Shown in pieces: positions 7,934 to 43,843 of a stretch of DNA of 64,000 nt. This DNA comes from a virus, in the IMG/VR virus record IMGVR_UViG_3300017917_002349, positions 97,939 through 161,938 of that record; one strand, 5' to 3'. Under the pieces are notes generated by a model. It was not told where the DNA came from and ran no database searches. It saw only the letters and a list, made by a program, of their open reading frames with translations. Made by a program: the position numbers and the translations under genes. The stretch's first letter is position 1, and each line of letters begins with the position of its first letter.

Positions 7934-7978
7934 TTGGGTCGCTCCCTGTTGTGTTAATATGTGTTAATTATAGCTGAA

Positions 7979-8263: not shown

Positions 8264-8318
8264 CTTTCGCTCCTTACTATTCACTATACCTATAGTATAG
8301 CACCGCAGGCCCAATCTG

Positions 8319-9371: not shown

Positions 9372-9438
9372 AGTTCGCTCCTAAGTTGTTTAGTTAGTGT
9401 GTATATAATAGCATCACTGAACCAAAATGTCAACCAAA

Positions 9439-10133: not shown

Positions 10134-10225
10134 TTATCTATCTGGATCCTCTTGGGTCTATATTATATATCTTATTATATACAAAGTATTGGTCAAAGTC
10201 AACCTACTAGCAGCGGGGCGGTGAT

Positions 10226-10256
10226 AAAAAAACCCACTGTACGTGCATACAGTGGG
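10226..10256 (-). terminator. intrinsic terminator
   Basis: CCCACTGTA/TACAGTGGG stem plus T7. Confidence 0.85.
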
Positions 10257-10287
10257 TCCAAGTTACCGCCGCCGGGAGCGAATCGGT

Positions 10288-10593
10288 TTAGGCAGTAACA
10301 GCCGCTGTCTTCGCGACAGTGACCTTGACACCTGCTTTGGGTGCAGGATTCTTTTTCTCGCAGTAGGCGATGGCAGCTTGGATAGCGGCATTGCCCGAGC
10401 CAAAGCCCACGGACTTGAGATGCTGTACAGCTTCAGCCTTGGTCATCTCGTTGGGCAGCTCTACGAGATCCACATCAGTATGACCGTTCTTAGCGAGGAT
10501 CTTGATGCGCATCACATCATTGGCAAAACGTAGCTTGGTCTTGCCTTCAAGGGTTGAAACGCCTGCAACAGCAAATTTCTTATCAGTAGCCAT
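10288..10593 (-). CDS. small basic protein, possibly nucleic-acid binding
   Basis: Lys/Ala-rich C-terminus, own promoter, 5' hairpin and terminator. Confidence 0.75.
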   Translation of the reverse strand: MATDKKFAVAGVSTLEGKTKLRFANDVMRIKILAKNGHTDVDLVELPNEMTKAEAVQHLKSVGFGSGNAAIQAAIAYCEKKNPAPKAGVKVTVAKTAAVTA

Positions 10594-10675
10594 TTTCAAA
10601 TCTCCAAAAGTGTGTGTATGAATCTGCCAATCCTTTTATTGGCATAGTTTACTATAGCACAACTATCCAAGTATG

Positions 10676-10867
10676 TCAACCGATCGGTTGCCCAATTTGT
10701 GGAATCACTTGGATAGTCACGCTTTCCTTCTCGTCTAGGGCGGCGATAAACTCGTCATCATAGACCAGATCCTGCATGGCCAAATCAATCATTGATTCGA
10801 CCCGATCCAGATCTGCTTGGCCTGGGCCAGAGCAGATCACGGTAAATGTGTAGGCAAATGTTCTCAT
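10676..10867 (-). CDS. hypothetical protein
   Basis: 63-aa coupled ORF. Confidence 0.65.
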   Translation of the reverse strand: MRTFAYTFTVICSGPGQADLDRVESMIDLAMQDLVYDDEFIAALDEKESVTIQVIPQIGQPIG

Positions 10868-11484
10868 CCTATCAAACTACGGCGCTGTTCAGCACCATCC
10901 TTGATCCATTCTGTGAGCTCTTCTTCGTTCTCACGCTCCCATTCACGGATGCTCTCCGAGATACCAAATGCTTCGTCCAACTCCGGATAGTTCTGCTCGA
11001 TCTCGTCGGCACCCATGCCTTCTAGACTGAAATCATCGCAGGAGCCTTCAGAGTATTCGCCAGCAAATGCCATACCACCTTCATAGAACAGGGCATTGAC
11101 ACGGAAACCCAGTTGCTCGAGCTTCTGGTAAGCATTCACGGGTGGAGCCCATGCTGAGTCGAAGCAGGTGTGTAAGATCCGACCATCTGGATGGATATCC
11201 TGATTGCCCGATTCGCCTACATCCCATTTGGTGCCCCACTCATTGGTGCAGAAATCATACCAGTTGCCGTAGCCATACTTCTCTACATTGCGTCGAGTCT
11301 GTGCTTCCAGAGCCTGCTGTTTCTCGTCGTCACCGTAGGAACCACTCATAGTTTCTGTGAGTTCTTTGGGCACAGGAATGAACTCTTGCAGGAACTCTCC
11401 CCGCTCAAGTGCATCGTAGGCCCGCTTGATCATCGCTGGGTCATCGTGTTCTAGTGTGACGTTATTGTTGCACCAATTCGGCAT
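10864..11484 (-). CDS. DUF1281/YubB-like protein
   Basis: MPNWC.N start, NWYDF..NEWGTKWD, FDSAWAPP. Confidence 0.75.
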   Translation of the reverse strand: MPNWCNNNVTLEHDDPAMIKRAYDALERGEFLQEFIPVPKELTETMSGSYGDDEKQQALEAQTRRNVEKYGYGNWYDFCTNEWGTKWDVGESGNQDIHPDGRILHTCFDSAWAPPVNAYQKLEQLGFRVNALFYEGGMAFAGEYSEGSCDDFSLEGMGADEIEQNYPELDEAFGISESIREWERENEEELTEWIKDGAEQRRSLIG

Positions 11485-11518
11485 AGTCGCTCTCCTAAGT
11501 CAAGTTAGTATTATACAG

Positions 11519-11743
11519 TCAACGGCTCAAAATGTCAACCAGTTTTTGGTTCTGGAAATCTTTGTATCTGCGATCCAATAAGGAGTCTACGCTGTCCACG
11601 AGGGTCTGTTCCATGAGTGTGGCATTTCTGCCACAGATCTGTTCCACCGTCCGCAGGATCTTGTGCTGTGCCATGGGGCTGTATTCACCGGACTCCAGGG
11701 CCTCTACGGCTCTGCGAATGTATTCATGTTCTTGGGGGGTCAT
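11519..11743 (-). CDS. hypothetical protein
   Basis: ORF in a coupled run. Confidence 0.6.
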   Translation of the reverse strand: MTPQEHEYIRRAVEALESGEYSPMAQHKILRTVEQICGRNATLMEQTLVDSVDSLLDRRYKDFQNQKLVDILSR

Positions 11744-11954
11744 AGTCTTTCACCATACGGTATAGGGGTTCAATTTCTTCACAGTCTACAGCAGAGAATT
11801 CGTCATCTCTCCAATCCACGAACTCTGTGCGGACTGGATCTCCATAGTTGCCATCATAGGCTAGGCTCAGTGCTTCCTCTTCCGAGTCCGCTTCGATCTC
11901 GTAGTATTCATCGATAACAGCGGCACGAGCTAGGGTGAACTTGAATCTAGCCAT
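11724..11954 (-). CDS. hypothetical protein
   Basis: ORF in a coupled run. Confidence 0.7.
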   Translation of the reverse strand: MARFKFTLARAAVIDEYYEIEADSEEEALSLAYDGNYGDPVRTEFVDWRDDEFSAVDCEEIEPLYRMVKDYDPPRT

Positions 11955-12193
11955 CAGTAATCCGCCGTGACACGACCGTTATCATAGGTAAGGAATACCT
12001 TGCCCGTTTCCACTTGGCCTGTGCCAGCTTCGTCGAAGTAGGTTACCTTATAGCAGAACTGACCGCCATTGGTGATACCTACAAACTCTGCGGATTCAAA
12101 ACTAGCACCTGTGTAACCACTGACTGCTAGAGCACGGGCCAGGCCCTGCCTAGTGAATGTGGTTAAGGTCTTGAGCGTGTCTGCTGTGATCAT
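11954..12193 (-). CDS. hypothetical protein
   Basis: ORF in a coupled run. Confidence 0.7.
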   Translation of the reverse strand: MITADTLKTLTTFTRQGLARALAVSGYTGASFESAEFVGITNGGQFCYKVTYFDEAGTGQVETGKVFLTYDNGRVTADY

Positions 12194-12414
12194 TAGGCAC
12201 CCCCGTAGTAGATCGCATCCTCATCGGCTGCATTCTCAGCGTATTCTGCGGGGTCCTCATCACAATCCTCGCTAAGGATACGCTGGACTTCTTCTGGCTT
12301 CAACTCTAGGACGCGGGCGATAGTCAGCACGGTCTGTGCGTCCTGCCCAAAATCGTCACCCATGTCGTGGGCCATTTCCTGCACTTCTATTTCCAAATTG
12401 CTGAAAAATCCCAT
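12193..12414 (-). CDS. small acidic protein
   Basis: Start moved to the ATG behind AGGAGAGCGA. Confidence 0.7.
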   Translation of the reverse strand: MGFFSNLEIEVQEMAHDMGDDFGQDAQTVLTIARVLELKPEEVQRILSEDCDEDPAEYAENAADEDAIYYGGA

Positions 12415-12463
12415 TGTCGCTCTCCTAAGTATGTGTATATTATAACACACCCTATCCAATCTG

Positions 12464-12793
12464 TCAACCGATTTCTGCCACGTGTTTGCAGTTGCCACGG
12501 AAGGTGAATCCCGGACAGGTGCAGGTCTTGTCCTCTAGATTAACAAAGTAGGAGTTGCCTTTGGATCCCTTGATCTCCACGGTCGCATTCTTGGCTGCAT
12601 TCTCAGGGGCCTTGAATGGATTGGGCTTGACTGTTTCGAACTTGCGTCCCCGCTTGTCGAATCCTTTGATTCCGTTCTTGAAATACTTGATCTCTTTGGT
12701 ATCATGCCGTTGGTAGGCAATCAGCGTGGTGCCATCTAGTAGGTAAACATGGGGATGGAAGGCACCCCCAGTGGTTTCACGCAGTGCTTCCAT
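12464..12793 (-). CDS. SWIM zinc-finger protein
   Basis: GSKGNSYFV...CTCPGFTFRGNCKH. Confidence 0.8.
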   Translation of the reverse strand: MEALRETTGGAFHPHVYLLDGTTLIAYQRHDTKEIKYFKNGIKGFDKRGRKFETVKPNPFKAPENAAKNATVEIKGSKGNSYFVNLEDKTCTCPGFTFRGNCKHVAEIG

Positions 12794-13059
12794 TAACGGT
12801 AGTCCTTACGATCACCAAATCGTTCGTTCCAATCGTAGCCAGCCATGTATTCAGCCACTGACTCTTTATCGGAGACTTCAACGCGGGGTCCGGAGTCGCT
12901 ACCAACACCGCCATAGTGCGGCTGTGGACGACGACCGTAGTAGGAATCGGCACTGCCACGATCATACAAGCAACCGTGAACTCCACGCACAAACGGAAAA
13001 CCCTTAAGGGCCCGGACAACACGCTCTTGCTCTGTTTCAGTTTCTAGTTTAATATACAT
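12793..13059 (-). CDS. hypothetical early protein
   Basis: YDRGSADSYY motif; promoter and RBS. Confidence 0.75.
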   Translation of the reverse strand: MYIKLETETEQERVVRALKGFPFVRGVHGCLYDRGSADSYYGRRPQPHYGGVGSDSGPRVEVSDKESVAEYMAGYDWNERFGDRKDYR

Positions 13060-13123
13060 CTTCGCTCCTGTTATCTAACTATGACTCAAGTATAGCACCA
13101 AAATGGCACCCTGTCAACCAAAA

Positions 13124-13444
13124 TCAACGAGGAATACGAACTACGATGCCCTGTGGCGTAGAAACAACAGCATAGCCCTTGCTCTCAAGAATGCTCACGG
13201 CCTCACGAGCCATGGCGCGATCTCTCTTTATGGCACCCTCAAGTTTCACAGCGATGAATTTCTTGCGGTAGTTGATGTAGCTCTCAGCGTAGGCGAACGC
13301 TGTATCCAAAAGGTCCAGAGCTCGCTGTGCCATGCACTGCTGCTGGGGGGTGTAGGTGCAGGCCAGTTCTCTGTTGCGGTAGTAGGCATTGAGGGCTGCC
13401 CCGCGTTTGTTGTCATCTGCATCACGATAGTTTAGTTGTTTCAT
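13124..13444 (-). CDS. hypothetical early protein
   Basis: Promoter and RBS; start corrected. Confidence 0.7.
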   Translation of the reverse strand: MKQLNYRDADDNKRGAALNAYYRNRELACTYTPQQQCMAQRALDLLDTAFAYAESYINYRKKFIAVKLEGAIKRDRAMAREAVSILESKGYAVVSTPQGIVVRIPR

Positions 13445-13519
13445 TTCACGCTCCTTATGTTCACTGTACCTACAGTATAACACCGAAGAATCAAAATGTC
13501 AACCAAAATGTCAAAGACC

Positions 13520-13879
13520 CTAGACTATCAAGGGTTTCTTGTAGGGGTCCCTACGATCACTCCAGATCTTGTAGCTGTGGTTGGCACGTACCCAATCTGC
13601 AAATGTCTGTGGCTCAGTCTTGAACCAGGCCTGGATATCGTCTGGACCAATATCTTCCGTGCTGGTAAACACGTAGATTTCGTAGTGACGATGCTGGTTA
13701 TACTGTGCTCGAAGTTTCAGTGCTGTAAGGTTAAAGCCCATGGGCTTCTCTACCTTCTTGCTTTGTTTTATCGAATCAAACAGATGGTTCTTAGCCCAGT
13801 TGTCAGGGTGGTGTTCCGTGATCTCTTCAAAGAACTCCACCCCCTCACAGTCCCAAGAGACTATGTAATAACGTGTCAT
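13520..13879 (-). CDS. hypothetical protein
   Basis: 119-aa ORF. Confidence 0.7.
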   Translation of the reverse strand: MTRYYIVSWDCEGVEFFEEITEHHPDNWAKNHLFDSIKQSKKVEKPMGFNLTALKLRAQYNQHRHYEIYVFTSTEDIGPDDIQAWFKTEPQTFADWVRANHSYKIWSDRRDPYKKPLIV

Positions 13880-14389
13880 GAGTTTACTGTGTTGTGCGGA
13901 TCGAATTCTTCCTCAGAACCAACTCCATTGGAGTCTAACCATTGATAGATCAGTTCCAGAGGACAGTCCAGTTGCAGGGCGATGCTCTTAGGGCCATAGC
14001 CCTCGATGTAGAGCTGCTCGATGTCATAGGCTAGATCGCTGAGACTCATCGTGCAGTCTCCTTCATGACTTCCTGGGTCTTACCCACAGCCTTATCGATA
14101 GCGGATGCTACGCCTGATACTCCAACAGTGGCCACAAACATACCTGCAATGAATGCCATTAGAATTTTCATGACTACTCCTTAAACAAACGCCCAATAAG
14201 AACCTACGGCTATTGCATAAACAGCAACAGCGTAGCCCAACATCTTTAGATCTTCTTTGAACAAATCCATGCTTGCTCCTTGAACATTTACGATACCTAT
14301 AGTATACAACCAATCTAGGATTTTGTCAACTACGCACACGTATAACAGCGGGGCCTGTAGCTAAAAAGCCACATCCCCTGGCACTCCTG

Positions 14390-15595
14390 TCAAGCTGTCT
14401 CTCTTTCGTAGATCACAGTCTGTCCAAAGGGTGCTTCTGCCTTGTCGTTGCCTTTGACAACGAATATGGTATCGCAGTAGTCCTCTTCACCCCAACCACC
14501 ACAAGGGTAGCCGTCCGTGAACATGATAAACTTCTTAGGACGAATGTCATTCTCCTGCATGAACTGCCAGTTGACTTCGAAGTCTGTGCCACCACCGCCC
14601 TGAGGTTCGTAGTCTAACAGGTCTTCACTGTTATCATGTGTGATCTCTTTGTGGTTATAGATCTCTGTGTCAAAGCACCACAGATTGACCTTGAAGTCCT
14701 CGAACTGATCCATGATGCCCTTGATCTCGCCTAAGAAAATAGTTGCATCTTCTTCACCGATACTACCACTCATGTCCATAGAGACCGCTACGTCGATGGT
14801 AGTGGCTTCCTTCATGCCCGGAAGGATAGCACCTGAGTGCATACTCTTGCGATTCACACGCTGGAAGGAATAGTCATTGCGGACGATGCTTTGGATCTCT
14901 TGGCGAACCAACTCGCGCCACGAAATCTTAGGCTCAGTCATAGACTTGATCATACGCATGATGCCTGCGGGGGTCTTACCTGCACCAGCGGCCGCGGCAC
15001 TCTGGATCATAGCCTCTTTGATCTCATCACGGATACGCTGAGCATCTTCCTTGCTCATGCCAGGACGATTGCCTTTGCCTTCTTTGTCGTCGCCTTCACC
15101 ACCTTGGCCGTCACCTTCTTTGATGTGCTCGTCAAGCAGATCGCCCAATTGCTTGAGCAGTTGATCCATAGGGATCTTCTCTGCCTTCTCATAGAGATCG
15201 TCGTAGATCTCTTCCCAGGCCATGCCACGGTACTTGGCATCATAGCAGATCTTGACCTGTGTGATTTTCTCGCCGATACGCTCGTCTACGAGGATCTGGT
15301 TCACAGCGAAGTCCTGTGCGATGTTGCTGAGCTGACGATCGCGACTACCAACACGGCCAAAGTGATCAAACACGCAGTGACAGATCTCGTGACCAAACAG
15401 GAATTCAAGTTGTTTAGGCGAGAGCTTCTCTACGAACTTGGTATTGTAGTAAAAGTCTCGTCCATTGGTTGCGGCAGTAGGACACCACTCGTCTGCGTTA
15501 ATAAGACGCATACGGGTTGCCATGTTGCCAAAGAAAGGAGCCTTGAGCAGTAGGCCTACTCGGGCTGTGATAAGTTTTTCTACGATTGGATCCAT
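14390..15595 (-). CDS. VWA-like domain / putative metallopeptidase (DUF2201-like)
   Basis: TAATNG, HEICH (HExxH), MIDAS DMSGS, GGGGTDF, FTDG. Confidence 0.85.
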   Translation of the reverse strand: MDPIVEKLITARVGLLLKAPFFGNMATRMRLINADEWCPTAATNGRDFYYNTKFVEKLSPKQLEFLFGHEICHCVFDHFGRVGSRDRQLSNIAQDFAVNQILVDERIGEKITQVKICYDAKYRGMAWEEIYDDLYEKAEKIPMDQLLKQLGDLLDEHIKEGDGQGGEGDDKEGKGNRPGMSKEDAQRIRDEIKEAMIQSAAAAGAGKTPAGIMRMIKSMTEPKISWRELVRQEIQSIVRNDYSFQRVNRKSMHSGAILPGMKEATTIDVAVSMDMSGSIGEEDATIFLGEIKGIMDQFEDFKVNLWCFDTEIYNHKEITHDNSEDLLDYEPQGGGGTDFEVNWQFMQENDIRPKKFIMFTDGYPCGGWGEEDYCDTIFVVKGNDKAEAPFGQTVIYERETA

Positions 15596-15652
15596 TAGTC
15601 GCTCTCCTTACTGTATGTATCTATTATAGCACCTCGGGCCCTAGTTGTCAAC

Positions 15653-15695
15653 CAAAAAGAAACCGGGCAGTGTTGCCATACTACAACACCCCCGG
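15653..15695 (-). terminator. intrinsic terminator ending the structured MoxR 3' UTR
   Basis: CCGGG-GGTGTTG/CAACACT-CCCGG stem followed by TTTCTTTTT. Confidence 0.65.
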
Positions 15696-15777
15696 CACCC
15701 TCCGCCAGTGACTAGATGGCGCGGAAAAGGGTGGGCTAGAGCCCTGGGGAGCCCTAGCCCTAGGCTACGGTGAGGTC

Positions 15778-16866
15778 TTAATTGTTCTCCATAGCCGTCA
15801 ACACATACTTGCCGAAACGCTTGTGGAACTCGTCGAAGCTCTGCATCTTGGTAGCGTCAAAGGGCAGGTTGTAGTTGGTGAGTCCAGTCTTGGCACCCAT
15901 GACAACCAGCTCAGTCGGGAAGTTATCCATCATGTAGCGGAAGAACAGGTCAGCCTTGTCGTCAAACTTCTTGTCCTTTTTCTCAGCGGCATCCTTGAGC
16001 TCGTAGCAGAGGCTAACGGTCAATGAATACATGGCACTGACTTCTTTGATAGCCAAGTCCTTGACCTTGCCTTCGAGGATGTCGGAAGCCTTAGGCAATT
16101 TGCCTGCGATCTTGCGGTGAGCCATAAACTTCACAGCCAAACCGTCACCGATAGCACCTGCGATCAAGTTCTGCAGGGTCTCGTTGTCAGTGTCATCGTC
16201 ATTGAGCAGGTCGCTGACGAACACCCAAGAACGAGGAGTCGCAAATGACTTGCTAGGGCTCTTAGGATCGAAGTCATAGAGGTCTTGCTTGGCAAAACCC
16301 ACATAACCAACGACCTCAGGGTGGATGTCGTTCATAACAGCCCACTCTTGGAAGTCATCGAAGTCTACCTTCATCTCCAAGTGGACGAAACGGTTTGCCA
16401 ACGGAGCAGGCATACGGTAGGTAACACCACGGTCGCCTTCACGGTTACCAGCGGCAACGATGTCCACGCCCTTGGGCAGTTCATAGGTGCCTACACGGCG
16501 GTTAAGGATCAACTGATAGGCCGCGGCTTGCACGGCAGGAGGAGCGGAGTTAAGCTCGTCCAAGAAGATCAATGCAGTGGAGTCTGCATTGGTAGGCAGT
16601 TCTGCAGGAGGAGCCCAGACCATCTTGCCCTGCTCTGCATTGTAATAGGGGATGCCCTTGATGTCTGTGGGTTCCCAAAGAGCCAGACGAACGTCAATGA
16701 CCTCACGGTCCATCTCAAGACCGATCTGCTTGACGATATCGCTCTTACCGATACCTGGAGGGCCCCACAGGAATGTAGGACGGCGAACTTTGATCGCCTT
16801 ACGGATCGCCTTTTTGGCGCTCTTAGGGCCACATTGACGAACGGAAATATCTTGTGCTTTTGCCAT
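15778..16866 (-). CDS. MoxR-like AAA+ ATPase
   Basis: Walker A GPPGIGKS, Walker B IFLDE, AAGNR, LANRF, TPRSW; adjacent to a VWA partner. Confidence 0.9.
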   Translation of the reverse strand: MAKAQDISVRQCGPKSAKKAIRKAIKVRRPTFLWGPPGIGKSDIVKQIGLEMDREVIDVRLALWEPTDIKGIPYYNAEQGKMVWAPPAELPTNADSTALIFLDELNSAPPAVQAAAYQLILNRRVGTYELPKGVDIVAAGNREGDRGVTYRMPAPLANRFVHLEMKVDFDDFQEWAVMNDIHPEVVGYVGFAKQDLYDFDPKSPSKSFATPRSWVFVSDLLNDDDTDNETLQNLIAGAIGDGLAVKFMAHRKIAGKLPKASDILEGKVKDLAIKEVSAMYSLTVSLCYELKDAAEKKDKKFDDKADLFFRYMMDNFPTELVVMGAKTGLTNYNLPFDATKMQSFDEFHKRFGKYVLTAMENN

Positions 16867-16941
16867 TTAAGACCTCACTAAAGTTAGAACAAACAAACTG
16901 CTTTCCCAGTATCATTATTGTAGCACCTCTCGGTGCAGTTG

Positions 16942-17577
16942 TCAACCACTGATTTTCACGTAGTTGAGCTGTGTGGCGCCGTTGCCACGGTGTTGCTTGA
17001 TCTTGCCCTTGATGCGCACAGTGCCCTGGAGTTCCTTGGTATGCCAGAAATCCACGATGCTGTCACCCATACGTGCATCCATGCGGTACTTGCCATATTC
17101 TGCGTTGTACCGTGTGCGGATCACAGTGACATCACCCACGATGGTATCACCTACAGCGCCCGGGAGCGGTTGGGAACTGAAGATCTCTCGCTTGAGTTCA
17201 GCATGCGCAGCATCACGCAAGGCCACTGAGGGCAAACAGCTGATCACAGCGAAATCGTAGATATCACGACCCGTGAACTCTTCTTTGGCTGCAATCCGCA
17301 TGGCAGTCTGCTGGAAATCATTCATCTTGCCTGTGAGAGCCAACAGCGTGTATGATTTGAAGTGATCCCGGGCTGAGCGTCCTGCAGCGTAGTCGGCTTC
17401 AGTGATCTGGGTGAAATCGTTGTCGCGGAGCCATTGCTTGACCATGGCTTTGTTGGCTCGCTTGTCGACCACGTAGCTTTCGTCGATATAACGGCCTTTG
17501 TCCTCTTTGAGATACTCACCGTTGATGCGTTGAGCTGCTGCCGCGGCACCCCAAACTTGATCTGCTGTAAATTGCAT
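16942..17577 (-). CDS. hypothetical protein, possible C-terminal OB-fold
   Basis: 211 aa, beta-rich C-terminus ending TQLNYVK. Confidence 0.7.
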   Translation of the reverse strand: MQFTADQVWGAAAAAQRINGEYLKEDKGRYIDESYVVDKRANKAMVKQWLRDNDFTQITEADYAAGRSARDHFKSYTLLALTGKMNDFQQTAMRIAAKEEFTGRDIYDFAVISCLPSVALRDAAHAELKREIFSSQPLPGAVGDTIVGDVTVIRTRYNAEYGKYRMDARMGDSIVDFWHTKELQGTVRIKGKIKQHRGNGATQLNYVKISG

Positions 17578-17684
17578 CTATCGCTCCTTGCTATTCACTA
17601 TACCTCTAGTATACGATCTTTTGGCCCAGTTGTCAACCGTTTTGGGGAGTGCCGGCGGGTGTGGCTTTTCTGCAACATATGGTC

Positions 17685-17712
17685 AAAAAAACAGGGCCTA
17701 GTAAGGCCCTGT
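17685..17712 (-). terminator. intrinsic terminator
   Basis: ACAGGGCCT/AGGCCCTGT stem plus T-run. Confidence 0.85.
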
Positions 17713-17758
17713 CAAAACCGCCCCGGGAGCGAATCGGCTTGGTTTTGAGGAGCGAACC

Positions 17759-18034
17759 TTAGGCTACGGTCCAACCAGCTGCCTTGGCCATGTAACCAAG
17801 TGCTACGATTTCACGGCTGGGTTGACCCAACTCGTACTCAGTGACTGTGACACCGTTGCCTGCTGTGCGGCTGTTTGCGTAGACAGCATAACCACCTTGA
17901 CGGATGCGGCTAGCTTCTGCGGCTAGATTCTTTACACCAAAACGCTTGCTGGCCTGAGCGGCTGTAAGAGTTTCACCATTGTAAAGAGCTTGGAAGACCT
18001 TGAAAGTCTTGGTTTCGGGATTGAATCGCTTCAT
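17759..18034 (-). CDS. winged-helix-like DNA-binding protein
   Basis: GETLTAAQASKRFGVKNLAAEASRIRQGGY HTH-like pattern followed by a beta wing. Confidence 0.65.
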   Translation of the reverse strand: MKRFNPETKTFKVFQALYNGETLTAAQASKRFGVKNLAAEASRIRQGGYAVYANSRTAGNGVTVTEYELGQPSREIVALGYMAKAAGWTVA

Positions 18035-18131
18035 GTTTTTTCCTCTAAATGTTATAGCTGATTACTTGTTTTTCAGCGTCCTTATAATATACTATAATCC
18101 AAAATATATTGCAAGGATCAATATTACCAAA

Positions 18132-18555: not shown

Positions 18556-19676
18556 TAATGCATCCCCTTCATAACAGTTACGCGAGCATGACCTTCCCAA
18601 TTGCTGGGGAACGCCTTGCGCAGTTGTGCTACTTTGAGCACGGTACGTAGGCTGAGTTCACGCATGCTGGCACGATTGGTCTCGATGAAATTAACCACTT
18701 CGTCCTTGGCGATGTCCTCAAGCTCGTAGTCATCTAACATACCGTCCTTGACGATCTGCTTGATGCGCAAGACCTTCTCGCGGTCAGTGTCCATGCGCAG
18801 ATCGATGTAGTGGCAACGGCTTTCAAGAGCGGCAAGGTGATCCTGCAGTTTCTTAGAACGCACATTCTCAAACTTCAAGTTAGTGATAAAGATAGCACCA
18901 CCCTTGAACTCGAAACGATCTGGAATACCCTCGCTTCGCAGGATACGGCTGTCAGTGTTCCACGAGATAGTACGCTTCTTGGAACTGTCCAGGGCCGCTT
19001 TTAAAATATTAAGCGAGATGTCGTCCAAAAGAATGCTGTCACAGTCGTCAAACACAAGAATGCTCTTAGAGTCTGAGAACTTGTAGAGCTTAGAGTACAG
19101 ACCAATGGCACTCATAGCACCCTTGACGATCTCGTACTTGGGCTTGCGTTCGCCTAGCGTGTTGAACAGATCGTCCTTAGACAGTACTTCTTCAACACCA
19201 AAGCTCTTGCCCACACCAGGAGGGCCTGTGACGATCATGGCACGTACATCGCCTGCTTTCACAGCCTTGGTCATGTCCTTGAGGATCTCAAAACGCACAC
19301 GGGTACGCTCGATGATCTGTTCATCGGTCTCGTGTGCTACAGCAGAGTCAGCGACCTTGATCTGTGTGAAGTCTGTGACCTCGGCACCCTTGGTGCTCTT
19401 GTTCTTGAGCGCAGTCAACATGCTGACAGCCTGGGGCTGGCGAGTGGCCTGTACAGTACCTTCCACGGCATAGTCTCCTTGACGGCAACGGATGCGGATT
19501 GAACGATCTGGGAACGGGATACTGCCTGCGGGACTTACGCTGGTACCATCGACAGTGACATAGCCTTCGCCCGTCTTTGAGACCTTGTAGTCTTCGACCA
19601 ACTCGAATGAATAGCCGGCAACATTAGTGGGTTGACCCTTGATGTTGTACCAGCCCTCGGTGAAAGTAATACGCAT
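18555..19676 (-). CDS. AAA-family ATPase
   Basis: GPPGVGKS, LVFDDCD, IFITN, SRC; start corrected to the ATG behind AGGAGCGAA. Confidence 0.85.
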   Translation of the reverse strand: MRITFTEGWYNIKGQPTNVAGYSFELVEDYKVSKTGEGYVTVDGTSVSPAGSIPFPDRSIRIRCRQGDYAVEGTVQATRQPQAVSMLTALKNKSTKGAEVTDFTQIKVADSAVAHETDEQIIERTRVRFEILKDMTKAVKAGDVRAMIVTGPPGVGKSFGVEEVLSKDDLFNTLGERKPKYEIVKGAMSAIGLYSKLYKFSDSKSILVFDDCDSILLDDISLNILKAALDSSKKRTISWNTDSRILRSEGIPDRFEFKGGAIFITNLKFENVRSKKLQDHLAALESRCHYIDLRMDTDREKVLRIKQIVKDGMLDDYELEDIAKDEVVNFIETNRASMRELSLRTVLKVAQLRKAFPSNWEGHARVTVMKGMH

Positions 19677-19757
19677 TTTCGCTCCTGTGTATTTGTTGAA
19701 CATTCTCGTATTATATTACAGATAGGGGCTGTTGTCAACCCCTAACAGTAATAACCC

Positions 19758-20192
19758 TTATGCGTCAAGGGCTTCTTGTATGCCAAACGCCTTCTCTAGA
19801 TCTACAAACCCGCCCTCGCAGCCGTAGTATTCTACATACCAATTGCCGTCCAAACGGTAGATATAGTTGTATTCTTCAAACTGGCTGTCACGCTGATAAG
19901 CAGCAAAGTCTGCCCAAACCCGGCACTCACAGCCTGTCTCGCCACGATCGCGTCCGTAGGCTGTGGTCCAATTGTCGGGTTTGTTGCGATCGTCAAAGTC
20001 GTGGGCCTGACCGATCTCAGGGCGCAGGCTGCTGATATCGCCCAAGAGCATGAGAGCGTAGATCTTGGCACGATCCTGGTAGTGTTCCTGCAGGATCTTA
20101 CCGTTGTTGTCCAGGTAACCGTCCCAGTGGCAGTAGATCTGCATGATCTCACCGTTGGGCTGTTCCATCGCGATAGTGCTTCGTGTTGCCAT
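19758..20192 (-). CDS. conserved phage early protein
   Basis: MATRS.I, IYCHWDGY, AYGRDRGE, EEYNY. Confidence 0.8.
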   Translation of the reverse strand: MATRSTIAMEQPNGEIMQIYCHWDGYLDNNGKILQEHYQDRAKIYALMLLGDISSLRPEIGQAHDFDDRNKPDNWTTAYGRDRGETGCECRVWADFAAYQRDSQFEEYNYIYRLDGNWYVEYYGCEGGFVDLEKAFGIQEALDA

Positions 20193-20260
20193 AGTTCGCT
20201 CCTAGTTGTTTAACTCAGTCTAGAGTATAACACGGGCCGGAGCCCGTGTCAACCACATTG

Positions 20261-21475: not shown

Positions 21476-21529
21476 GGTCGCTCCTTGTTAACGTTACAGT
21501 GCGTATTATACACAGAAGAGTGGCGCCTG

Positions 21530-22250: not shown

Positions 22251-22335
22251 TGGTAGGACCGACCGGAATCGAACCGGTATGCATCGCTGCGAGGGATTTT
22301 AAGTCCCTTGTGTCTACCTATTTCACCACGGTCCC
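22251..22335 (-). tRNA. tRNA-Leu(TAA)
   Basis: GGGACCG acceptor, loop CTTAAAA, long variable arm, GGTTCGATTCC, encoded CCA. Confidence 0.95.
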
Positions 22336-22357
22336 CTAACGCGGGCTGCTGCTGTAG

Positions 22358-22434
22358 TGGCCACGCATAAGGGATTCGAACCCCTGACCCACAGCTTAGA
22401 AGGCTGTTGCTCTATCCTGCTGAGCTAATGCGTG
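22358..22434 (-). tRNA. tRNA-Arg(TCT)
   Basis: CACGCAT/ATGCGTG acceptor, loop CTTCTAA, GGTTCGAATCC, encoded CCA. Confidence 0.95.
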
Positions 22435-22439
22435 ATGTT

Positions 22440-22516
22440 TGGTGGGCCCCCCGGGACTTGAACCCGGACTCAACGGATTATGAGTCCGCTGCTTTAACCA
22501 ATTAAGCTAAAGGCCC
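22440..22516 (-). tRNA. tRNA with CAT anticodon, probably Ile2 (lysidine type) rather than Met
   Basis: GGGCCTT acceptor, anticodon arm GCGGA-CTCATAA-TCCGT, GGTTCAAGTCC, encoded CCA. Confidence 0.85.
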
Positions 22517-22530
22517 TGTGACTAGTGTAA

Positions 22531-22821
22531 TTAATCCTCTCTTGGGTGTGGTTGATTCACTTCTGGATCCCACTGTGTAGTGCGCTGCTGCTGCCCTAGT
22601 GTGACAAAACGATGTAGATCTTCCATGTGTTCTTGGAATATGTCAGGCACGGCAGCTGCTGCTCGCTGCATGTCATATGTGTGGGGATAGTGACGCAGCG
22701 CCCCGCGAGCACGATCACGTATGCCCGAGGGAATCCTGGGAGTCATCCGGGGATCGCAGAGCTCTTCCAGCAGCCTACGTGCCTGTTCAACAGCTCGATA
22801 ACGTTCATCTGGTAAGGTCAT
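22531..22821 (-). CDS. hypothetical protein (MTLPDERYRA type)
   Basis: TPRIP..IR..AR..LRHYP; downstream of promoter 22870/22893. Confidence 0.65.
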   Translation of the reverse strand: MTLPDERYRAVEQARRLLEELCDPRMTPRIPSGIRDRARGALRHYPHTYDMQRAAAAVPDIFQEHMEDLHRFVTLGQQQRTTQWDPEVNQPHPRED

Positions 22822-43227: not shown

Positions 43228-43843
43228 TAAATTTGATCCCTGTGGCTACTGGGATCGTCCAATGGATAAAGTATTGTATATTCCATTGGCCGAAGATCTA
43301 GATCTATTTGATCAGAATGGATATGATCTAACCGTTTTAGAGCAACACTTTGCTGTCAGCAATTATCGTGCTGCCTGTGAACACCGTAAACACAGGATGG
43401 CCATCAAACAGGAATGGTTCGTTCAAACTCCTGAGATCGAAGGACCTGTGTTGAATCACAGTCTACTCTTTGAAAGAAAAGCCTATACAGGAGCAGCACT
43501 AGAACAACTCAAATACTGGTCTCTTAAACTGCCTCTGGTACATAAAATTATAGCCATGCGTCCAAAATGGGGCTTAGACTTTAGTATGGATTATGTTGAT
43601 AGGGAAGGTAATGCTTTTGAAGTCCTACATTGGGAATGGGATAGTTTTGATTATATCGAAATAGAGTGTATTCGTAAAATCATAGAACCTAGACTCAAAG
43701 AAATAGATTGGGAAGATGCTGCGCAACAGATATTAAAGAACAAAGACAAATGGCACCATTTAGATTTCTTCGCACAGAGCAAATGGAAGTGCGATTATTT
43801 TGGTATCCCCGAAGAGCGTTTTAAAATGGTAAATTGGGAATAA
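43208..43843 (+). CDS. hypothetical protein
   Basis: Start moved to MLTLTSNK; FDQNGYDLT, PKWGLDFSMDY. Confidence 0.75.
   Translation: MLTLTSNKFDPCGYWDRPMDKVLYIPLAEDLDLFDQNGYDLTVLEQHFAVSNYRAACEHRKHRMAIKQEWFVQTPEIEGPVLNHSLLFERKAYTGAALEQLKYWSLKLPLVHKIIAMRPKWGLDFSMDYVDREGNAFEVLHWEWDSFDYIEIECIRKIIEPRLKEIDWEDAAQQILKNKDKWHHLDFFAQSKWKCDYFGIPEERFKMVNWE

Follow-up and report, generated by a model that had tools for sequence, protein, structure and literature searches.

What is the role of two identical 15-nucleotide (nt) sequences that stand at the ends of early transcripts in an uncultured jumbo phage? The stretch of DNA that raises this question, called the window below, comprises the 64,000 nt at positions 97,939 to 161,938 of the IMG/VR virus record IMGVR_UViG_3300017917_002349. 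The 15-mer CCGGGAGCGAATCGG occurs on its plus strand at 10272-10286 (site A) and 17723-17737 (site B), and a third core, GGAGCGAAC, lies on the plus strand at 17749. Read on the minus strand, all three cores come after a stop codon (10288-10290 of an open reading frame (ORF) of 101 amino acids (aa), and 17759-17761 of an HTH_39 ORF) and ahead of the two intrinsic terminators that are strongest in a leftward early region, which agrees with the positions and setting given in a preliminary description of this locus. We found that the elements form a well-supported family of structured RNA that is new, represented by about 100 distinct copies on four scaffolds, and that their loop is the exact complement of a ribosome-binding site (RBS) barcode, GGAGCGA(A), specific to early genes, as that description had proposed. 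The best explanation, which we hold to be about as likely as not, is that base pairing between loop and RBS silences translation, in cis or in trans.

The contig of which the window forms the final 64 kb has 161,938 bp and an estimated completeness of 46%, which implies a phage of about 350 kb. Among 50,697 genomes of cultured phages, no DNA match to the window was found in either near or distant mode; through its DUF2201 protein, the closest cultured relatives are Sinorhizobium phage Phosso, Pseudomonas phage PA5oct and Agrobacterium phage Atu_ph07, with 40-43% identity. IMG/VR holds hundreds of uncultured relatives with 70-90% protein identity, some of them complete genomes of 353-364 kb, and the family is an abundant uncultured clade of freshwater phages of about 350 kb. 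The loci retrieved from these relatives span at most 21 kb each, and counts per genome therefore come from pattern scans; kinship among the relatives inflates every copy count, and gene calls follow the ORF heuristics of this analysis. One identical pair of 15-mers per 64 kb is not rare by itself (about two pairs are expected for any 15-mer, by our estimate), and the significance of the pair lies in its context and in its conservation, with about 100 distinct copies in relatives.

Both sites share one architecture, consisting of a helix P1, a junction, a 3-bp helix P2 and a 9-nt apical loop, A-UUCGCUCC. The site A element (10262-10299, minus strand, like the other features of both sites) pairs 10291-10299 with 10262-10270 in P1 and 10284-10286 with 10272-10274 in P2, and its loop (10275-10283) has an unpaired probability of 0.93 in the minimum free energy (MFE) fold. 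The P1 5' strand is made of the last three codons of the 101-aa ORF, the stop codon (10288-10290) lies inside the junction, and an intrinsic terminator follows (10223-10259) with a 13-bp stem (10259-10230), a 4-nt loop and a U7 tract. At site B (17713-17747), P1 joins 17741-17747 with 17713-17719 and P2 joins 17735-17737 with 17723-17725; the junctions are AAG and GGC, the loop (17726-17734) has an unpaired probability of 0.88 in the MFE fold, and the terminator behind it (17683-17712) has a stem of about 10 bp (17713-17690) and U7. Folds that take in the last codons give P1, P2, loop and terminator for both window copies, with the loop 0.88-0.93 unpaired, whereas short pieces of the untranslated region (UTR) alone give no significant fold (z = -0.44 and +1.39); the structure needs the last codons. 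The short stems first described as exposing the loop do display both 15-mers as loops, but they are the tip of the longer P1-P2 structure rather than free-standing hairpins. Likewise, the ACCGCC reported before each 15-mer is not a shared box, since it belongs to the P1 3' strand at site A and to the junction plus P1 at site B.

The third core, GGUUCGCUCCU (17748-17758, minus strand), stands directly 3' of the HTH_39 stop codon. It too had been thought to be exposed in a stem, but it is predicted to be mostly paired, with an unpaired probability of 0.21 against about 0.9 for the two loops. In the nearest relatives its UCGCUCC persists between flanks that vary, and other lineages have two tandem hairpins; the third core is probably a degenerate first member of such a tandem pair, mostly paired and not displayed in a loop.

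In related IMG/VR jumbo-phage contigs the core persists almost unchanged behind the orthologues of both genes that precede the window sites, and 99 distinct copies were aligned to assess the conservation of the structure. The invariant part of the loop is UCGCUCC; the position ahead of it holds U, or in a few copies C, and the loop opens with A or G. P2 is 99.7% paired and includes compensatory variants (rows L190, L194 and L021), and elsewhere the same loop is carried on quite different stems (L087, L076 and the first copies of tandem pairs). In type B copies, which follow the HTH_39 gene, P1 has 7-8 bp with 91.7% of cells paired (75.6% in shuffles), 53 compensatory cells (17.4 in shuffles, and reached by none of 500) and a covariation score of 0.44, as against at most 0.14 in any slid register. 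RNAalifold, unaided, recovered the same P1-P2-loop structure. In type A copies the P1 5' strand is the ORF's last two to three codons, with the stop codon in the junction, and the P1 3' strand tracks these C-terminal codons (0/2000 in a test of cognate against permuted pairs). A cruder test, which compared cognate with non-cognate helices across the whole set, gave a weak result, since most type B helices resemble one another; the per-pair counts and the type A permutation supersede it.

A collection-wide scan added further scaffolds, namely type C, in which the intrinsic terminator itself carries the tip at its apex, and the first copy of the tandem pair, which has its own covarying P1; altogether the copies span four different helix scaffolds. 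In relatives, 125 sense copies have a terminator within 95 nt. Both window sites have the GC-rich hairpin and U tract of an intrinsic terminator on the transcribed strand, and the element is a conserved region between a stop codon and the mRNA's own terminator, as in small RNAs (sRNAs) derived from 3' UTRs. A 19-mer scan of a genome collection gave 11 matches, nine of which are GC-rich chance matches in coding DNA. The other two fall in phage-like contigs binned into bacterial metagenome-assembled genomes, L340 (Fluviibacter) and L343 (Aquiluna); these short contigs carry a type B element, sigma-70 promoters and barcode RBSs, and, with bins from two phyla, their binning is probably an artefact and no reliable clue to the host.

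The helices also reveal in which molecule they form. Type B P1 contains 19 G.U wobbles and only 3 A.C pairs, and the helix becomes longer in 62 copies when G.U is allowed, compared with 16 for A.C; this excess indicates that the structure forms in mRNA-sense RNA, not in DNA or in an antisense transcript. These observations bear on the idea that the motif is a double-stranded DNA operator, a 9-15-bp site bound in either orientation by a phage DNA-binding protein such as the adjacent winged-helix protein. The motif does occur in both orientations, always near transcript boundaries, and one copy lies behind an HTH gene. A DNA site, however, has no need of flanking helices whose covariation includes G.U wobble on one strand, the sense strand, alone. 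Copies of types A and C show no linkage to the HTH gene, and at the RBSs the motif sits as a functional Shine-Dalgarno (SD) sequence 2-5 nt from the ATG. We therefore regard an operator as very unlikely.

Could the element instead be a relic of a tRNA, such as the T-arm and acceptor remnant of an old att site, or a mimic of a T-loop? The 15-mer agrees at 12 of 15 positions with the T-arm of the window's tRNA-Leu, and the loop starts with UUCG. A T-arm has a 5-bp stem, a 7-nt loop UUCRANY with A58, and a G53-C61 closing pair. The hairpin has instead a 3-bp stem, a C at the position equivalent to A58 and, in most copies, an A.C closing pair, and it was rejected as a T-arm mimic. Moreover, neither ARAGORN nor the Rfam tRNA model (RF00005) finds anything at the sites even at E <= 10, the two direct copies bracket no integrase, and P1 is made of unrelated sequence in each context. 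A tRNA origin is thus hardly credible, and the T-loop-like hairpin that the preliminary description had kept as one alternative falls with it. When the covariance models of Rfam 15 were run on the window, only four tRNAs reached the gathering threshold; the best permissive match at both UTRs, anti-hemB, scored 24 bits against a threshold of 49.5 and aligned with the terminator rather than the loop, and was discarded.

The sequence to which the loop is complementary distinguishes the early genes. The leftward early region, on the minus strand, holds 18 near-perfect TTGACA-17-TATAAT promoters, each followed by a short leader and an SD. The barcode was said to be the RBS of at least eight early genes, and all eight minus-strand GGAGCGA sites between 7.9 and 21.5 kb indeed lie 2-5 nt before an ATG. 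Two read GGAGCGA, before ORFs of 129 aa (7939-7945) and 101 aa (21478-21484); five read GGAGCGAA, before ORFs of 94 aa (8267-8273) and 88 aa (13062-13068), a small ORF (9375-9381), an AAA-type ORF of 373 aa (19679-19685) and an ORF of 144 aa (20196-20202); and the 211-aa ORF immediately downstream of site B has GGAGCGAU (17581-17587). In the window as a whole GGAGCGA occurs 19 times where 4.8 are expected, a number reached by none of 100 shuffles.

The same preference holds throughout the family. Of 986 distinct promoter-leader units, 72% have GGAG, 59% GGAGC, 49% GGAGCG, 38% GGAGCGA and 26.5% GGAGCGAA, a further 7% have GGAGAGCGA, and the canonical GGAGG is found in 0.8%, though other genes of the same genome use it. 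In the present genome, GGAGC follows this pattern in 11 of the 17 GGAG-type RBSs of the early cluster, where GGAGG is absent, compared with 5 of 72 (and GGAGG in 10) for the other 193 genes. Within the early cluster the barcode marks the promoter-proximal gene of each unit and is rare at internal genes. The bases after GGAG are not explained by pairing with the conserved 3' end of 16S rRNA.

The predicted pairing follows this distribution closely. The 8-mer duplex is worth -12.4 kcal/mol, compared with -5.6 for AGGAG with the anti-SD, and loop pairing of -12 kcal/mol or better is found at 8 of 14 promoter-proximal early genes, at none of 21 internal early genes and at 1 of 193 other genes; none of 300 shuffled loops equalled the real one. 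The pairings earlier drawn for the third core are also correct, with 11 nt at the RBS at 20192, including one G.U, and 9 nt at the RBS at 19676. Barcode RBSs were further considered as kissing partners presented in hairpin loops, and this was dismissed, as stems of at least 3 bp occur at 34 of 378 sites and at 26 of 378 in a control of shifted register; a hairpin setting of the complement exists only in a few late-type leaders.

Hairpin and barcode are also present or absent together. Whole-record scans found both features on the same strand in G001, G003, G004 and G005, and G007 and G008, in which loop 8-mers lie on the same strand inside a barcode cluster, were counted as having both. Neither feature was found in G002, a complete genome of 357 kb with an HTH_39 protein 88% identical to that of the window, or in the cultured relatives Phosso, PA5oct and Atu_ph07. 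Among the scanned records that include the early region, none has just one of the two. Conservation of the element in phages without the GGAGCGA RBS had been named beforehand as a result that would refute an RNA-pairing role; it was not seen, the two being absent together in these records.

Part of this uniformity may have a simpler source, if the early region is built of mobile regulatory cassettes, terminator-promoter-SD modules that are copied or recombined and in which RBS and 3' element are conserved as module parts or recombination substrates. Throughout the region nearly identical units follow one another, each with a consensus sigma-70 promoter, a short leader, an SD and an ATG, and the architecture is as described for the PeSLs of T4-like phages, in which a repeated stem-loop, a sigma-70-like early promoter, an SD and a start codon recur in hyperplastic early regions (PMC2839356, PMC4122927); some leaders are near-duplicates, and such copying may account for part of the uniformity of the barcode. 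Yet the leaders vary between the -10 box and the SD while the 7-8-mer stays, the hairpin tip is borne by four unrelated helix scaffolds, coding sequence among them, which is not expected of a copied module, and the compensatory changes and G.U bias show selection on RNA structure. Recombination does not predict that two motifs should be complementary to each other, either, and cassettes as the explanation seem to us quite unlikely. Relatives differ in the gene that lies downstream of site A or B.

The loop also appears to match genes of another class. In two late-type gene families the RBS leader is the complement of 13-15 nt of the hairpin, a match that extends into the P2 bases. One encodes a secreted protein of the CsgF family (about 160 aa; Pfam E = 1e-8 to 1e-18) and the other a membrane protein of 93 aa. 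The 13-mer is invariant while the surrounding leader sequence differs, and only about 0.01 chance matches to a 13-mer are expected per 350-kb genome, by our estimate. In G003 and G004 these extended targets lie tens to hundreds of kb from the hairpins, one of those in G003 on the opposite strand, and these distances speak for action that is at least partly in trans. Two further genes carry the complement of the 15-mer as a 5' leader hairpin ahead of a separate barcode RBS.

Every extended-target gene is preceded by a TAAATA[CT] box, which is probably a late promoter. In the present genome (G000), an (A/T)TAAATA(C/T) box resembling the T4 late promoter TATAAATA precedes about 20 start codons by 10-35 nt, mainly in genes other than early ones, for example at G000:26075 before a tail gene of 2784 aa and at positions 43840, 50900 and 60810 of the window. 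Genes of the CsgF family, known from curli (type VIII) secretion, were located at L205:1021-1500, L206:1514-1993, L243:7032-7508 and L266:199-654, with a late-type box upstream.

How might such a loop act? We suggest that it pairs by Watson-Crick bonds with GGAGCGA(A), the barcode that extends the SD at promoter-proximal early RBSs, and would pair over 13-15 nt with the RBS leaders of the two late-type genes; because the pairing would cover the SD, it should block binding of the 30S subunit. In trans, the effector could be a stable 3'-end fragment or the intact 3' end of an mRNA, and in cis it could fold back on nested transcripts that all end at the same terminator. The hairpin-terminators are the strongest stops within the window's early region, so nested transcripts from several upstream promoters should end alike, with an anti-RBS loop. 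In related contigs, a long same-strand series of sigma-70 promoters with barcode RBSs closes with two tandem hairpins, the second of which is the closing terminator, and late-type boxes come next. The genes that carry the hairpin are not themselves marked: the 101-aa gene of site A (10288-10593, minus strand, family not known) has the RBS GGAGAUUUG, the HTH_39 winged-helix gene with site B in its 3' UTR (17759-18034, minus strand, 91 aa; Pfam HTH_39 E = 1.4e-5) has its own non-barcode RBS, and none of 46 distinct leaders of HTH_39 orthologues has the barcode. Their own RBSs are not complementary to the loop; fold-back in cis is conceivable for read-through from upstream barcode promoters.

A second complementarity in the same region bears on the cis route. 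The MoxR-type AAA gene (15778-16866, minus strand) has an RBS region complementary over 12 nt to its own stop codon and the start of its 3' UTR (16867-16878 with 15770-15781). This complementarity covaries, with a helix of at least 8 nt in 48 of 51 distinct relatives of quite different sequence (0/2000 permutations). The strand test did not support sense RNA here (31 extensions by A.C, 2 by G.U), probably an effect of flank composition among related sequences. Taken together, the shared-terminator layout and the covarying MoxR complementarity favour fold-back in cis. The MoxR repeat had been counted as a third early-region terminator with an anti-RBS; the covariation is in keeping with a pairing, but one that is gene-specific. 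What stands of the reading first offered for this locus is thus a set of conserved sense-strand hairpins complementary to the early barcode, without a displayed third core and without MoxR as a member of the class.

A further explanation is that the hairpin is a recognition site for a phage or host RNA-binding protein that reads the loop and thereby tunes termination or antitermination, or the stability or processing of 3' ends; the loop's match to the RBS would then be incidental. Protein-bound hairpins, too, are marked by an apical loop that stays invariant while the stems vary and covary, the element is always beside, or at the apex of, an intrinsic terminator, and co-variation between loop and RBS is absent. 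Nonetheless, recognition by a protein leaves three things unexplained: the exact match of the loop to an early-specific 8-mer that extends the SD, the 13-15-nt complement in late-type leaders with P2 bases included, and the joint loss of hairpin and barcode. Pfam and PHROGs searches of the genes near the element gave no candidate for an RNA-binding protein or an RNase, and we consider protein recognition rather unlikely.

Several points weigh against silencing by loop-RBS pairing. Loop and barcode are both nearly invariant, without co-variation of seed and target, and the sole loop variant, CUCGCUCC, coexists with mostly GGAGCGAA RBSs and shows no visible correlation with the RBS variant GGAGCGAG in G001 and G005. 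The co-occurrence of hairpin and barcode is partly phylogenetic, and the shared RBS could have been inherited with PeSL-like promoter/SD cassettes rather than selected for pairing. With 2-4 hairpins for 10-20 barcode RBSs per genome, action in trans needs high abundance of the RNA, and may depend on Hfq or another chaperone. By tblastn, the extended-target genes are absent from this 46%-complete contig, and one RNA that silences early genes plus two late genes lacks an obvious temporal logic.

With these points in mind, we tentatively propose a broader version of the pairing hypothesis, which we hold to be possible though somewhat doubtful, in which the phage uses an RNA address code. In this version the extension GGAGCGAA would be shared by all promoter-proximal early RBSs and absent from host and late messages, and the 3' hairpin of early transcripts would read it by base pairing, so that the whole early class is switched off when transcripts reach completion or 3' fragments build up. 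The CsgF-like and small membrane-protein genes would be held by that hairpin as well, through a kissing-hairpin pairing of 13-15 nt.

Other features of the early region accompany the element. The HTH_39 gene has its own non-consensus promoter, an RBS of the type AAAGGAAAC and a 5' UTR hairpin (window 18035-18131; about 2890-3000 in L083-L162), whose stem covaries among relatives (GCUGA..UCAGC or GCUGU..ACAGC) and which could be an autoregulatory operator RNA or a stabiliser. In most relatives a second conserved box, CCGGCACUCC (window 17640-17655, minus strand), lies past the site B terminator and just before the next -35; its complement occurs in the 3' UTRs of the MoxR and DUF2201 genes (15640-15700 and 14340-14390), ahead of GUGUUGU..ACAACAC hairpins, and it matches no common RBS. 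The early region is bordered on the right by clustered tRNA-Leu, tRNA-Arg and tRNA-Met (window 22251-22736), and the 297-nt 'tmRNA' called by ARAGORN across tRNA-Met is without Rfam support and likely false.

A full-text search of the literature on early genes, SD sequences, terminators and small RNAs of jumbo phages returned nothing comparable. The nearest relatives in design are bacterial sRNAs derived from 3' UTRs (CpxQ, DapZ, MicL, MalH), in which the pairing region also comes right after the stop codon, the terminator and U-tail of the parent mRNA are shared, and the target, here a predicted one, is at the translation-initiation region. Their seed is linear and 5'-located, whereas that of the phage element is in a 9-nt apical loop on a P1-P2 stem. 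The phage element further differs in belonging to a lytic jumbo phage, in being present in multiple copies, sometimes in tandem or inside a terminator, and in its predicted targets, a whole promoter class with a common RBS barcode.

Pyrimidine-rich apical loops that pair with the SDs of several mRNAs, sometimes loop to loop, are found in Staphylococcus RNAIII and in the C-rich loops of RsaE/RoxS. There is no sequence similarity, and the present loop also reads 3-4 nt past the SD core (CGAA), which would discriminate phage early mRNAs from others that merely have GGAG. As in hok fold-back (fbi/tac) and in lambda sib retroregulation, a 3'-terminal element would control a completed transcript, and the cis route and the MoxR pairing would work as hok fbi does; the differences are that here a single 3' module of general use would act on many different 5' ends by way of the barcode they share, that nothing points to 3' trimming or RNase III processing, and that P2 is too short for an RNase III site. 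The kissing loops of CopA/CopT and RNAI/RNAII resemble the fully complementary pair formed by the 3' hairpin and the late-type 5' leader hairpin, and the loop starts with a YUNR-like UUCG. The partners here are at distant loci rather than antisense transcripts of one locus, and most of the predicted targets, the early RBSs, are not in hairpins.

With PeSLs the phage shares the layout of promoter/SD cassettes (PMC4122927), having 18 near-consensus promoters on the minus strand. The descriptions of PeSLs (PMC2839356, PMC4122927) mention no sense-strand element complementary to the SD; here there is an additional hairpin that is structurally constrained and, in types A and B, separate from the terminator stem. 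By its DUF2201 marker the family is not T4-like, its nearest cultured relatives at 40-43% being Phosso, PA5oct and Atu_ph07.

What is new at this locus, then, is an RNA family for which a class-wide anti-RBS role is plausible. If the pairing is true, it would to our knowledge be the first known case of a lytic phage that controls a gene class by an RBS barcode read by transcript ends, and it would also explain why the early genes avoid the canonical GGAGG. The hairpin, small enough for direct testing, is a compact candidate part for orthogonal translational control. What is known of how large lytic phages shut off their early genes in time concerns mainly proteins, such as RegA, RegB and Alc of T4. 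RegB, which cuts GGAG in early SDs, and RegA offer a parallel in outcome, a class-wide switch-off of early mRNAs at their RBSs; no homologue of regA or regB was found, though no search aimed at them was made. They are proteins, whereas the candidate effector here is an RNA, and the address code, if true, would be a protein-free temporal switch functionally equivalent to them.

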